Assembly (NCBI GenBank): GCA_963712115.1
Contig: CAVQGX010000031.1
Location: 256,001-320,000, forward strand
Length of the DNA: 64,000 nt
Source of the DNA: an uncultured delta proteobacterium
GTDB lineage: Bacteria > Desulfobacterota > Syntrophobacteria > BM002
Direction: 5' to 3'
In this document: in pieces, positions 60,122 to 64,000 of the stretch
How positions within the stretch are numbered: position 1 is the stretch's first letter
How the letters are laid out: every line of letters begins with the position of its first letter
The notes under the pieces: generated by a model
Databases searched by the model: none
Told to the model about the DNA's origin: nothing
The model's input: the letters and a program-made list of their open reading frames with translations, nothing else
Made by a program: the position numbers and the translations under genes

Positions 60122-62353
60122 ATGATCAACCAATGGCGAGGAAAATCTGTTATGTCCAAGGTTTATAAATGGTTGGCTGCAATCTTGGGTGGTCTGCTCT
60201 TGTTGTTTTTGGTGCTAGTTCTATTTGTCCGCTTCTACCTTACGGGTGAACTTATCGCCGCTTGGATTGAGCCTCCCATGGAAAACTATCTACACCGCAA
60301 TGTGACGCTTGCTGATGCCAGGATTGGATTCCGCGGCTTTCGAGTAGATGGCCTGGAGATCCACGAACAAGGCAGCAGTGCTCCGTTGCTAAAGGGTGAA
60401 AAGTTAGAGCTCCGTTGGAGATTCAAGGAACTTATAAAAGGTAGAATCGTAATCCACACCCTGGTGTTCACCAAGCCGGAGATTAATCTCATCCGCTATG
60501 AAGACGGAAAACTGAACATCGCCGACCTGTTACCGGAGCATGCAGATCCAAATATTCAGGAATATTCCAGCAAGCATGCCGGTGTCCCACTGCTTATTTC
60601 ATTACTTTCTATGGAAAATGGTCACCTTAGCTTTGTGGATCGTTCCCAGAAGCCCCAAGCAACATTGGAAATAAGAAACCTCAAATCGCGGATAAATGAC
60701 TTTTCCGCCAGCGCACCCATTCCCTTTCAGATAGAAGGCCAGATTGTGGGCACGGGTCAAGGTTCTTTGGCTGTGAATGGCACTTACAACCCGGTAGGTG
60801 AAAACCTCGAGGGGAATTTGAGTCTCAAAGAAGTTGATCTGGTAAGGATTAGTCCCTTCATAGCTCGAAATCACTCACATGTTATCCAGCAAGGCAACCT
60901 GACTTTGGAAACATCCCTGTCCACAGAGGGATTTGACCACTTTGTGGCTCAAGGCAGTCTGAATCTGGATAAACTGAAGGTAAAAAATGGTGAAAAGCTG
61001 TCTGACACCCTCCAGGTGGAAGGCGATTTCCAACTTGATGCTTTACTCTCCAAGGAAACACTTAAAGTGAACTCTCTCAACCTGGTTCTCAATGGGCAAA
61101 TGGCCGAGATCCAGGGAACGCTTACTAAGTGGCAGCAAAAACCTCTTTTTGATTTTACTCTCACCTCCCATGAAATTAAATTGGACGAACTCTTGGCCCT
61201 CCTACCCAAAGCTCCACCTGCAACTGAGACCATTGAAGCCCCAACTGATCAATCAGCACCCGTTAAGGAGAGCTCGTCGACTCCTGAGGTTGAGGAAAAA
61301 GCCAGTTCTGAGGTGGTTTCTCTGCCTTCGTCAACGAAGACGGAAGAAAAGTTGGTTGAACAACTCAAGACTCCCGAGACTGCCCCAGAATCAACCGCTG
61401 TTGGTGGTAAGGCTGGTGGAGACTCCGGCGAGTCAGTTGTACTGCCCACAGGACCAGCTTCTGAAGGTGGAAGGGAAGAGTTGGAGGGGAATAAACCCTT
61501 TAATCTGGATGCTCAGGCAACTATTCATCTTGACTGGCTTCATTATAAAAAATTGGTTGCCAGCAATGTTGACTGCCAGGTGAATTTTCAAGAAGGAAAA
61601 TTGCGAGTACAACCTCTGTCAGCGTCTCTTTATGGCGGCACATTAGGGGGTAATGCAAGAACGGACACGAAATCGGTCGGTCCCCCTTTCCATTCTATTG
61701 TTTACACAGAAAATATCCTGCTTGACGAAATAGTTGGAGTCATTTGGCCCGAAACCGGCGGGCGCTGGTCCGGCAATGTGAACCTCTTCTTTAGAGGCAA
61801 TGGTAGCGGATCAGACCTGAGTGCCCTGCAATCCCGCATTGATTTGAATATCAACGAAGCCGAGTTTTCTGGGCACCCTCTTTTCACAAAGCTTGCAGAG
61901 TTGTTTCAAGCCGAAAACCTTAAACAACTCCGATTTTCCCAAGTAACTGCAAGGGTTCTCACAAAGGAAGGGATAGCTACTATTAAAAGGCTGCATTTAG
62001 TTGGTCCCATAGTGCAAGCGGAAGGAAGTGGAACCGCGGGTCTCTTGGATAAAAATCTCGACTTACATCTACTCCTCCAGATCCGAGCTCAGTATGTAGG
62101 TAAAATCGGGCCTTTAAGGGACATAGTCACCAAAATCTCAGATAAACACGGCTTTGTTCAACTACCCTTGACGGTGCAGGGTACCTTTGATGAGCCAGTG
62201 TATGGGCTGAATCAGAGCTGGCTGGAGAAAACTGCCAAAAGAGTCGGGGTTCAGCAAGTGAAAAAGCCTGATAAGAAACAGCTGCCCAAGCAGCCTATTA
62301 GCGAGCAAAAGCAGAAGCAACTCAAAGAGGGATTAGAAAAGCTTGTCCAGTGA
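60122..62353 (+). CDS. AsmA family protein
   Basis: N-terminal TM; P.I.L.R...G.LNI.DL; repeated beta-taco-like segments; LPL.V.GT...P C-terminus. Confidence 0.82.
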   Translation: MINQWRGKSVMSKVYKWLAAILGGLLLLFLVLVLFVRFYLTGELIAAWIEPPMENYLHRNVTLADARIGFRGFRVDGLEIHEQGSSAPLLKGEKLELRWRFKELIKGRIVIHTLVFTKPEINLIRYEDGKLNIADLLPEHADPNIQEYSSKHAGVPLLISLLSMENGHLSFVDRSQKPQATLEIRNLKSRINDFSASAPIPFQIEGQIVGTGQGSLAVNGTYNPVGENLEGNLSLKEVDLVRISPFIARNHSHVIQQGNLTLETSLSTEGFDHFVAQGSLNLDKLKVKNGEKLSDTLQVEGDFQLDALLSKETLKVNSLNLVLNGQMAEIQGTLTKWQQKPLFDFTLTSHEIKLDELLALLPKAPPATETIEAPTDQSAPVKESSSTPEVEEKASSEVVSLPSSTKTEEKLVEQLKTPETAPESTAVGGKAGGDSGESVVLPTGPASEGGREELEGNKPFNLDAQATIHLDWLHYKKLVASNVDCQVNFQEGKLRVQPLSASLYGGTLGGNARTDTKSVGPPFHSIVYTENILLDEIVGVIWPETGGRWSGNVNLFFRGNGSGSDLSALQSRIDLNINEAEFSGHPLFTKLAELFQAENLKQLRFSQVTARVLTKEGIATIKRLHLVGPIVQAEGSGTAGLLDKNLDLHLLLQIRAQYVGKIGPLRDIVTKISDKHGFVQLPLTVQGTFDEPVYGLNQSWLEKTAKRVGVQQVKKPDKKQLPKQPISEQKQKQLKEGLEKLVQ

Positions 62354-62529
62354 CATTCAACTGGAATGGTGGAATAATGGAATACTGGAATATTGGAAAT
62401 TATGGTCATGGTCTTTGTCTTGGTAGACGCGTAAAACTCTGAAACTTCGCGGACTATACTCGCCTTACTTCTAGGCTTTTGTCCCCCCAATGTATTTGAA
62501 GACTAGACCCAACTTTCCAACATTCCTAA

Positions 62530-62686
62530 GAGAGAAACCCCGACAAACCCTCGCGCTGCCTGACTCACCGCCCCCTACCGTCCCTTCCAGTTGTTCTGGG
62601 AGCTCAACTGGCCTTACGTTTAGTCCGTAAGCGGATTCATAGGTTGGTCTCTTGGAGCCAAGTCCCCGCACGCGGCTTATCGGGGT
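62530..62686 (-). ncRNA. Putative ~150-nt structured ncRNA
   Basis: 13-bp closing helix ACCCCGAUAAGCC/GGUUUGUCGGGGU with G-U pairs, further helices and two apical hairpins; promoter ATGAGA-17-TAAGAT (extended TG) places +1 at the first paired base. Confidence 0.6.
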
Positions 62687-62782
62687 CATCTAATCTTAGC
62701 ACAATTTGTGTTTGCTCTCATAGATTTTTTTCTGGTCTTTCTGTCCCCCATGCCTTCCCACTCTTTTCTTAATTCAGCCCCT

Positions 62783-63048
62783 CAGTTGTCCGTAGTCCGT
62801 TGTCAGTTGCTCAAAACGTTGAAACCGTTTAAATAACTTCAAATTGGATATGAGATGTGAGATCTGAGATGTGGGGTGCTAAATCTCCGGGTAAATGTTG
62901 AATCTCACATCACACATCACACATCGCACATCTGCTCCTTTGGATTTTGCTTTTTTTAAATCCGAAATCCGCAATCCGAAATCCGCAATGCCCTTCCATG
63001 CTCCATGCGGCGAACGGAGTGAGCAACAACGAACCACGGACTACTGAC
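62783..63048. repeat. Nested inverted heptamer-array structure
   Basis: Outer CAGTTGTCCGTAGTCCGTTGTCAGTTGC / GCAACAACGAACCACGGACTACTGA; inner GATGTGA-type (62847-62873) / TCACATC-type (62902-62932); AATCCG(A/C) x4 at 62958. Confidence 0.7.
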
Positions 63049-63172
63049 CAGGTAGAAATACCCTAGCCTTTGAGGCGAAAAAATGGTAAGCATTCTAACG
63101 TGTGGCACAGGTGGCGGGCCAAGGCTTTGACTTTAGCCGACTAGATTTTCAGGAGCCCTAAATGCAAGTTTT

Positions 63173-63284
63173 CTGGAGTACTGGAGTAGTGGAGTACTGG
63201 AGGAATATCGAAATCAGACTGCCGTCTTCGAACAGACTCTAATGTATTTGCAACACTCCAATACTCCATCACTCCATCACTCCA
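63173..63284. repeat. Inverted octamer arrays
   Basis: TGGAGTA(C/G) repeats at 63173-63202 versus ACTCCA(A/T)-type repeats at 63251-63284; related TGGAATA array at 62382-62415. Confidence 0.65.
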
Positions 63285-63304
63285 ATTAAGAGGAATCTTT
63301 TCCC

Positions 63305-64000
63305 ATGAAAGAAAGGACTCCCTTCTTTTGCATCTTAACTCTCGTGTTTCTGGCCATGGTCGCCGGGCTGATCGTCTGGCAGTGGGATACCCTGGTTGAG
63401 AAAATTGCAGGAGAAAAACTCGAGGAGGAACGCCAGGGTTGGATGGAACGAACTCAAGAGCTCGAGTCCATCATTCTGGAGTTGCAGCAGGGTAAAGAAT
63501 TTAAACCGCTCCTGCCAGCGGAAAGATTAAGTCAAGCCTTTGGTCCTACTTCACCTTTAGTGAAGGGGGCGTCACCAAGAAGCATGAAGTGCGAAGAACT
63601 GGAGGCCTCCCTCCGCGCCTTTTGCCAGTATCTGGACGCCGGTGAAACTTTTCGCTCTCAAAAGACTCACCGTGACAGTTGGGCACTTTTTACCAGCATT
63701 CTTCAGTCCCTGGAACGGCGACCTCCAGTAATGAGCGCGGAAGCTTATAGACCCTCGGTAATAGTTGAAAATAGCTTTTATTTCATCAGGTTACTCGGCA
63801 AAGAGAAGATCGACATTCTGCGCGAGGTGATCAAATTCGAGTCAGATCTTGCTGAACCCCTTATGGGCATCATCTACTACTGGCTAATGACTGGCAGGAG
63901 TTGTGACAAGTTACCATCTCCCTCTTCTGCTTTAAAGTTTATGTATAATTACGCTGGCTTCTTCCTGAACACCCTGGGGGGCCATTCGTATTTGTACCGC
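63305..64000 (+). CDS. Membrane-anchored hypothetical protein; runs off the window
   Basis: Manual translation MKERTPFFCILTLVFLAMVAGLIVWQW...; same frame at the window end reads YAGFFLNTLGGHSYLYR; RBS GAGGA. Confidence 0.75.
   Translation, partial: MKERTPFFCILTLVFLAMVAGLIVWQWDTLVEKIAGEKLEEERQGWMERTQELESIILELQQGKEFKPLLPAERLSQAFGPTSPLVKGASPRSMKCEELEASLRAFCQYLDAGETFRSQKTHRDSWALFTSILQSLERRPPVMSAEAYRPSVIVENSFYFIRLLGKEKIDILREVIKFESDLAEPLMGIIYYWLMTGRSCDKLPSPSSALKFMYNYAGFFLNTLGGHSYLYR

Follow-up and report, generated by a model that had tools for sequence, protein, structure and literature searches.

Several stable bacterial RNAs are closed by the pairing of their own two ends. 6S RNA (SsrS, RF00013), which is nearly universal, is a stand-alone RNA of 150-190 nucleotides (nt) whose ends pair into a long irregular rod. 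The bacterial Y RNAs (YrlA), which go with the protein Ro (Rsr), combine a closing stem made from both ends with a branched apical module. The RNA of the signal recognition particle (SRP), in its 4.5S and its large form, is the hairpin-like RNA of a ribonucleoprotein (RNP), is likewise closed by its own ends and has conserved internal loops. Beside these stand the orphan non-coding RNAs (ncRNAs; examples in Rfam are raiA, OLE and HEARO), which are defined by covariation and conservation only, are restricted to particular lineages, have no known function and are more conserved than the genes next to them. Here, we describe an RNA from a 64,000-nt stretch of DNA (hereafter the window; contig CAVQGX010000031.1 of assembly GCA_963712115.1, positions 256,001 to 320,000 of the forward strand) of an uncultured delta proteobacterium of the class Syntrophobacteria. 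Its minus strand very probably holds an independent gene for a stable, highly structured ncRNA of about 149-150 nt, with a conserved structure and a conserved promoter. With it we describe for the first time an RNA family whose known occurrence is so far confined to one uncultured family of Syntrophobacteria (Desulfobacterota).

Fold, covariation and boundaries of the RNA

The RNA gene is located in a 950-nt spacer between a convergent gene of the AsmA/DUF748 family and a divergent 302-codon gene, and in the window sequence it runs from 62686 to 62537, that is, over 150 nt (Table 1). An earlier sequence-only reading of the window had proposed a structured RNA of about this length here and had assigned it to the minus strand by its G-U pairs. 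Indeed, the minus strand folds with -70 kcal/mol and a z-score of -3.72, and none of 200 shuffled sequences folded as well. The plus-strand fold gave a z-score of -0.04 and was matched by 90 of 200 shuffles. Because the plus-strand fold is no better than that of shuffled sequences and the minus-strand fold far better, the G-U pairs do fix the strand as minus.

The RNA folds into a rod made up of the five helices P1-P5, with small conserved internal loops between them. A three-way junction caps the rod and carries one hairpin with a variable loop (hairpin 1) and one invariant hairpin (hairpin 2). P1, the outer helix ACCCCGAUAAGCC/GGUUUGUCGGGGU that the sequence-only reading had already drawn correctly, comprises 13 base pairs (bp) formed by both ends of the RNA. 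Two of these are conserved G-U pairs. Covariation is seen in the two outermost pairs (AU/GC and CG/UA), and the inner 11 are nearly invariant. The remaining helices are shorter, with 4 bp in P2, 5+2 bp in P3, about 5+3 bp in P4 and 3 bp in P5, which is nearly invariant and thus beyond a test by covariation. In P3, four of the seven pairs show double changes (e.g. UA/CG in 15 sequences). P4 shows compensatory changes from ACCUA/UAGGU to CCUG/CAGG, AUCUA/UAGAU and GCCU/AGGC, and the register of its outer two or three pairs differs between our alignments A1 and A4. In this inner part of the rod the earlier reading does not hold: its helices GACUUG/UGAGUC and GCUCC/GGGGC are paired in 78-80.3% of the alignment cells with mostly one-sided changes, and this is the worse-supported register. 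The register CUUGG-CU/AG-UCAGG with ACCUA/UAGGU is 88-92% paired in the structure-fitted alignment A3 and has nine double-change pairs over its three helices, in P3 and P4.

Both apical hairpins had been predicted correctly as well. The stem of hairpin 1 shows CG/UA and AU/GC double changes, in 15-17 and 9-10 sequences, respectively. The stem of hairpin 2 never varies: it is invariant in 18 of 18 genome sequences, which were found without using the stem as a pattern. Its 11-nt loop, AGCUCCCAGAA, keeps A..UC....AA, i.e. about five fixed bases.

The common fold was assessed on three alignments. A MAFFT alignment of the 18 genome copies, made without reference to structure and folded by RNAalifold, gave 47 pairs, nine of which carried compensatory double changes. 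When 41 distinct full-length copies were aligned anew with MAFFT, again blind to structure, a near-identical fold resulted, with 41 pairs, nine of them double-change pairs. In alignment A3, which has 52 rows (45 distinct) fitted to the structure model, 95.4% of the cells were paired, as against 35-44% when the partners were slid by 1-3 columns. The double-change pairs numbered 15, compared with 3-9 for the slid partners, and none of 500 shuffles attained any of the five measures. Mutual information calculated on A3 gave only clade-level signal and no convincing pseudoknot or extra pairs.

Among the homologues, conservation extends from the -10 box as far as the U-rich tail. The box, TGCTAAGAT, is separated by 17 nt from the hexamer ATGAGA, and A62686, the first base of the first helix, lies 7 nt beyond the box. 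In 38 of 40 distinct sequences a TGnTAnnnT motif stands 8-9 nt ahead of the CCCGAU core of this helix; in one of the two exceptions the box is shifted by one base, and in the other, the genome G018, it lies about 13 nt further upstream. Of the promoter proposed from the sequence, the extended -10 element is therefore conserved, but the -35 hexamer ATGAGA is not, since it varies among homologues and lineages. The A7 tract further upstream might function like an UP element. At the other end, a U-rich tail follows P1 in every lineage (GGGGAUUUUUUU in the distant clade), as had been expected from the single sequence, and P1 and tail together look like a terminator whose closed 'loop' would be the whole RNA. 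In the window, the RNA is not followed by a gene on its own strand, in agreement with the sequence-only reading. The covariance model R1 (see below) scores 178.1 bits over 62530-62690.

Table 1. Positions of the RNA, its helices, its flanking signals and the two adjacent genes in the window
Feature	Position	Strand	Remarks
A7 tract	62731-62725	minus	upstream of the promoter; A/T-rich run here in nearly all homologues
-35-like hexamer ATGAGA	62721-62716	minus	4 of 6 consensus positions matched; weak
Extended -10 box TGCTAAGAT	62701-62693	minus	nearly invariant in homologues
RNA body, 150 nt	62537-62686	minus	from predicted +1 (A62686) to end of closing helix (U62537)
P1 5' strand ACCCCGAUAAGCC	62674-62686	minus	partner 62537-62549
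P2 5' strand CGUG	62669-62672	minus	partner CGCG 62552-62555; 4 pairs, CG/UG variation
P3 5' strand CUUGG-C-UC	62655-62662	minus	partner GA-G-UCAGG 62559-62566
P4 5' strand ACC-A-ACCUA	62640-62648	minus	partner within 62567-62577 (UAGGG..GGU)
P5 UCC	62633-62635	minus	partner GGA 62581-62583; closes the three-way junction; predicted
Hairpin 1 (CUUACG, variable loop, CGUAAG)	62613-62631	minus	covarying stem, freely varying loop
Hairpin 2 (CCAGUUG, 11-nt loop AGCUCCCAGAA, CAACUGG)	62587-62611	minus	7-bp stem
P1 3' strand GGUUUGUCGGGGU	62537-62549	minus	partner 62674-62686
U-rich tail UUCUCUCUU	62528-62536	minus	terminator-like together with P1
AsmA/DUF748-family gene	60122-62353	plus	convergent neighbour; Pfam DUF748 3.4e-34, AsmA 6.2e-20
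P0001, 302-aa membrane-anchored protein	63305-64000, continues past window end	plus	divergent neighbour; no Pfam family

Distribution, RNA libraries and gene neighbourhood

The RNA is single-copy in its own genome. By blastn, one copy each was found in 19 of the family's 21 other genomes, in one of them as a contig-end fragment only, and none in 19 genomes from other families within the class. We built the covariance model R1 from alignment A1 of 18 full-length copies, without G015 (5' half replaced) and G012 (truncated at a contig end). It matched 18 of the 21 family genomes but not one of 100 further genomes from the class. When run over 150 other genomes across the phylum, it returned only G014, which belongs to the family, and a marginal match in G127 (22.1 bits, E 0.034 per genome). 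We rejected the latter, as it lies inside a 389-codon frame and, with a z-score of -1.30, has a fold no better than expected by chance. A pattern scan of named genome records yielded 17 loci, all of them in metagenome-assembled genomes (MAGs) labelled Syntrophobacterales, Syntrophobacteria, Deltaproteobacteria, Desulfobacteraceae or Desulfobacterota. A corresponding scan of metagenome contigs added 33 loci, every one confirmed by R1 at 99-191 bits, among them a GC-rich, more distant clade at 123-134 bits. Phage and plasmid collections held no match to the RNA. Across lineages the RNA remains 75-95% identical, while the flanking AsmA protein falls to 32-35%.

One locus departs from this picture: in L016 (G015:C339, 1511-1659) the RNA retains its 3' half alone (58.4 bits), with unrelated sequence in place of the 5' half and the promoter. 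The MAG in question has 7% contamination, and the half-RNA reflects either a genuine disruption or a chimeric assembly.

Is the RNA seen in public RNA libraries? Of 24 public runs listed, six that are recorded as RNA contain parts of the stretch, and four of these (X15-X18) were examined. In X17, a soil metatranscriptome, several contigs lie at 62543-62683 and cover the RNA body only. The summed word depth is 72-218 over the body and 12-23 in the two edge bins; outside the RNA it drops to 3.1 at 62709-62735 and to 0 beyond. One X17 contig runs at 62538 directly into 21 letters that we take to be sequencing-adapter sequence; if so, a molecule of the library ended at the last pairs of P1. The cover in X17 fits a discrete RNA of the predicted size.

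In the genus g1, the conserved gene order is polyprenyl synthase, asmA, the RNA (convergent to asmA) and then, divergent from the RNA, P0001, an Lcl_C protein, cobO, cobU and cobT. The asmA gene adjoins the RNA in 18 of 19 loci from genomes and 28 of 33 from metagenomes; the five others among the latter have at most about 800 nt of downstream sequence. This adjacency persists where AsmA identity is only 32-35%. The exception among the genomes is G018, in which the row beside the RNA consists of P0001, the Lcl_C protein and cobO, and a co-directional gene lies about 340 nt downstream of the RNA. P0001 is adjacent and divergent in all 18 assessable genome loci and has the same distribution as the RNA (19 of 21 family genomes, 0 of 100 outside); the two genomes lacking both are incomplete MAGs. 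However, P0001 is missing from six metagenome loci of the GC-rich clade, in which the RNA is present together with 1 kb or more of its upstream sequence, and a dedicated pair of RNA and P0001 is therefore not claimed. The AlphaFold model of P0001 is all-helical, with a mean predicted local distance difference test score (pLDDT) of 67.6, and Foldseek found no match to it in the PDB at E<=0.001. In the metagenome locus L083, cobO stands directly beside the RNA; a 149-codon frame there appears spurious. The spacing between the RNA and the gene on the cob side is about 270-930 nt. Since the whole region is syntenic, adjacency singles out no partner of the RNA.

Some features of the surrounding DNA deserve a record of their own. 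The row of the 302-aa protein, Lcl_C, cobO, cobU and cobT (window 63305-64000 and L001:2286-3194; also L065, L067, L068 and L083) lacks a cobalamin riboswitch recognisable by Rfam, both in the window and in seven related loci. Short tandem repeats of 7-8 nt fill the spacer in which the RNA lies (62362-62398, 62782-62809, 62847-62932, 62958-62989 and 63173-63285). Two repeat pairs fold into long hairpins that draw weak matches to microRNA models (62846-62933 and 63181-63276). Words from two of the arrays are so abundant in X18 (depth about 830 and about 1070) that we consider the repeats widespread. A 184-nt repeat-bearing insert (about 62352-62535) lies between asmA and the RNA and is absent in one relative.

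Known RNA classes and competing explanations

Rfam 15 (4227 models) gave no match at gathering score in the whole window or in the seven related loci. At E<=10 over 62300-63350, only BSR1350 (15.7 bits, cut-off 216) and Six3os1_2 (12.8 bits) fell on the candidate; we treated both, as well as the microRNA-model matches, as noise. Full-text literature searches found no description of the RNA. The proposal of a new stand-alone small RNA (sRNA) with its own promoter is supported by the lack of an Rfam match, the conserved promoter, body and tail, the covariation and the X17 cover limited to the RNA body.

The stable RNAs of the cell are encoded elsewhere in the same genome, in accordance with the earlier remark that the candidate has no hallmarks of transfer RNA (tRNA), SRP RNA, transfer-messenger RNA (tmRNA) or RNase P RNA. 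The large SRP RNA lies at C31:48560-48820 (156.8 bits), where the small-SRP model also matches; RF00169 and RF01854 each had this single kind of hit in the genome, one match apiece, and none at the candidate. The candidate shares with SRP RNA the closure by its own ends and the conserved internal loops. RNase P RNA was found at C30:165059-165455 (RF00010, 326 bits) and tmRNA at C13:27194-27549 (RF00023, 207 bits), and ARAGORN reported no tRNA or tmRNA gene in 62000-64000. A Y RNA would offer the likeness of a closing stem with a branched apical module, and of a protein-bound RNA acting without a seed. It is argued against by the lack of any Ro/TROVE gene (PF05731, no match in the 94.4% complete genome), and the candidate has no Rfam match and no tRNA-like arm by ARAGORN. 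Nor does the RNA sit where a riboswitch or cis-leader would, as the next downstream gene is convergent. Pfam models found no gene for Hfq, ProQ/FinO or CsrA in the 94.4% complete MAG. As to the features of an Hfq-type sRNA, a U-rich tail is present, but it comes after the long-range helix P1, and the sole candidate seed is a partly conserved loop. For a sponge of the CsrB/RsmZ type, no CsrA gene was found and a GGA in the loop of hairpin 1 is not conserved. Compared with the orphan ncRNAs, the candidate is alike in being defined by covariation and conservation only, in its restriction to a lineage, in having no known function and in being more conserved than its neighbours; it differs in its lack of an Rfam match, its lineage (uncultured Syntrophobacteria) and its architecture. 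In its shape and likely action, the RNA comes closest to 6S, Y and SRP RNAs, yet it fell short on every membership test run for them.

The sequence-only reading had considered a divergent 6S-type RNA, which would be a decoy of RNA polymerase. The candidate is a stand-alone rod closed by its own ends, is 150 nt long, has a strong-looking promoter of its own, is apparently abundant and probably owes its action to its shape and not to a seed. Nevertheless, we regard this identity as very improbable. A search of the genome with RF00013 at E<=10 gave six matches, none at the candidate: the canonical 6S RNA (C2:41852-42034, 81.3 bits) and five paralogues, so that the genome already has its 6S RNA. 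The consensus folds without a large two-sided central bubble (its biggest loops measure about 7x3 and 8x0 nt), a three-way junction takes the place of a terminal stem at the apex, and the RNA is limited to one family. Even less probable, to the point of being nearly dismissible, is a guide RNA of a mobile element, similar to the bridge RNA of IS110, which the earlier reading had also raised. The RNA is single-copy in a neighbourhood that is fixed across genera, phages and plasmids are without a match, and the genome's 14 matches to the IS110-type transposase (PF01548), spread over 13 contigs, include none on the contig of the RNA (C31), where its neighbours are asmA and the P0001 and cob genes. 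We place at the same low level a short coding gene, for which an ATG at 62689 opens a 72-codon frame across the RNA (62689-62471). This ATG is absent in several homologues, insertions and deletions of 1-2 nt break the frame, and the substitutions are of a kind that compensates pairs. A role as a ligand-sensing or regulatory RNA of corrinoid metabolism also seems improbable, if less starkly so. It would give a meaning to the divergent P0001 and cobO-cobU-cobT of g1, to P0001, Lcl_C and cobO in G018 and to the cobO directly beside the RNA in L083, all without a cobalamin riboswitch or another Rfam family in the window or the seven loci, and a conserved junction with fixed unpaired bases may resemble those of aptamers. 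But the RNA is encoded on the other strand and directed away from the cob genes, the Rfam cobalamin models give nothing on it at E<=10, its spacing to the cob side varies, and regional synteny can account for the adjacency.

Two further explanations tie the RNA to other transcripts. In one, the RNA would be a cis or antisense element tied to asmA: a two-way terminator, or an RNA that pairs with read-through transcripts of asmA and controls their 3' end or stability. The convergent asmA in nearly all loci, also at low AsmA identity, is what such an element would predict; in several genomes the tail of the RNA lies only about 10-15 nt from the asmA stop codon, which leaves no room for a separate terminator, and one contig of X18 spans the end of asmA and the RNA. 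We nevertheless think it quite unlikely that this is the function, because G018 keeps the RNA without an adjoining asmA, the 184-nt insert separates the two in the window, a terminator needs no conserved three-way junction, invariant hairpin or dedicated promoter, and in a neighbourhood that is wholly syntenic (polyprenyl synthase, asmA, RNA, cob genes) adjacency says little. In the other, the RNA would be a trans-acting, base-pairing sRNA, in which the ribosome-binding sites of target mRNAs are paired by the hairpin-2 loop, which has a C/U-rich core, or by some other open region, and the remaining fold only stabilises the molecule. The separate gene, with a promoter of its own and a 3' tail rich in U, suits this, the loop keeps UCC and flanking A's in all sequences, and CUCCC would be complementary to ribosome-binding sites of the GGGAG type. 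We still judge it unlikely: only about five bases of the loop are fixed (variants are GAGCUCC-CAG, GAAAUCC-AGA and GACUUCCAAAA), the 5' end is buried in P1, conservation is strongest in the paired regions and the small junction loops, and no Hfq or ProQ gene was found.

The five near-identical 6S-like paralogues, of about 180 nt, are an observation apart from the candidate. They lie at C44:13967-14144, C18:1992-2171, C46:149003-149182, C11:77088-77267 and C4:57-236, are 94-100% identical to one another and 76-78% identical to the canonical copy, and score 30-40 bits against an Rfam cut-off of 46.4. This multi-copy paralogue may ride on a repeated element.

A protein-bound RNA as the proposed mode of action

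How could the RNA act? We tentatively suggest that it works in trans as a protein-bound structural RNA, either as an RNP scaffold or as a decoy, with the binding itself being predicted. A structured RNA gene combined with such a mechanism is, by a modest balance of the evidence, the best explanation overall. Transcription would start from a promoter of the sigma-70 type that relies on its extended -10 box, at the first base of the 13-bp helix that joins the RNA's own 5' and 3' ends, and would stop at the U-rich tract right after this helix. The RNA would then fold into the P1-P5 rod, capped by the three-way junction with its variable and its invariant hairpin, and the stable folded molecule would bind a protein and serve in trans as scaffold or decoy. 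Since the strands of P1 and hairpin 2 are fixed while the other helices covary, we speculate that sequence within these helices is recognised. A protein-bound RNA is further suggested by the identity of 75-95% that the RNA retains where the flanking proteins have strongly diverged, by the burial of its 5' end in P1, by the variability of its long unpaired stretches (except for the partly conserved loop of hairpin 2) and by the lack of an Hfq, ProQ or CsrA gene in the genome as assembled. A seed-pairing sRNA or a cis element is less likely.

Several observations weigh against this proposal or limit the evidence behind it. A simple consensus promoter scan did not call the -10/-35 promoter of the RNA gene, and the case for the promoter therefore rests on conservation. 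P1 with a U tract that encloses about 125 nt is unlike a classical terminator. That hairpin 2 is invariant in the 33 metagenome loci follows from the search itself, because the patterns used on the named genome records and on the metagenome contigs required its stem. Alignment A3, having been fitted to the structure model, leans towards it, and all sequences come from one family, so that independent compensatory events are few and the significance obtained from shuffles is overstated. The RNA evidence consists of assembled contigs, which carry no information on strand, level or true ends. In X15 and X16, contigs of low depth (3.9 and 2.2) run from within the RNA across the promoter to 62792/62793, and in X18, which gave depth 3-8, a contig of depth 5.3 links the end of asmA to the RNA in a relative without the 184-nt insert. 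Some of the cover may therefore stem from DNA carry-over or read-through. By themselves X15, X16 and X18 are evidence neither for a transcript nor against one, and parts of the stretch that lack cover prove nothing. The absence of Hfq, ProQ and CsrA from an incomplete MAG is weak evidence, and the loop of hairpin 2 (..CUCCC..) could still be a seed against Shine-Dalgarno sequences.

What does the RNA mean for its hosts, which are uncultured Syntrophobacteria of sediment, estuary and soil? Orphan families of bacterial ncRNA are found regularly; this is a new RNA family of a familiar general kind and no surprise as such, and its value is that of a clean, testable new family. The RNA is easily defined, with its promoter, both ends, five helices and junction all mapped, and could readily serve as an Rfam seed. 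When a structured RNA is conserved more tightly than the proteins encoded beside it, it usually has a specific job, be it protein binding, ligand sensing or catalysis. It is a long shot, but one worth stating, that this one is the RNA subunit of a lineage-specific RNP, or a trans-acting sensor RNA. If so, the stable 'housekeeping-style' RNAs of these bacteria, namely 6S, SRP, RNase P and tmRNA, would gain a fifth member, the sequence-fixed closing helix and the three-way junction would be the recognition sites of a dedicated partner, and a link to the flanking asmA (envelope lipid transport) or to the corrinoid genes would be possible. For the uncultured Syntrophobacteria, the RNA provides a marker and a handle on their regulation.

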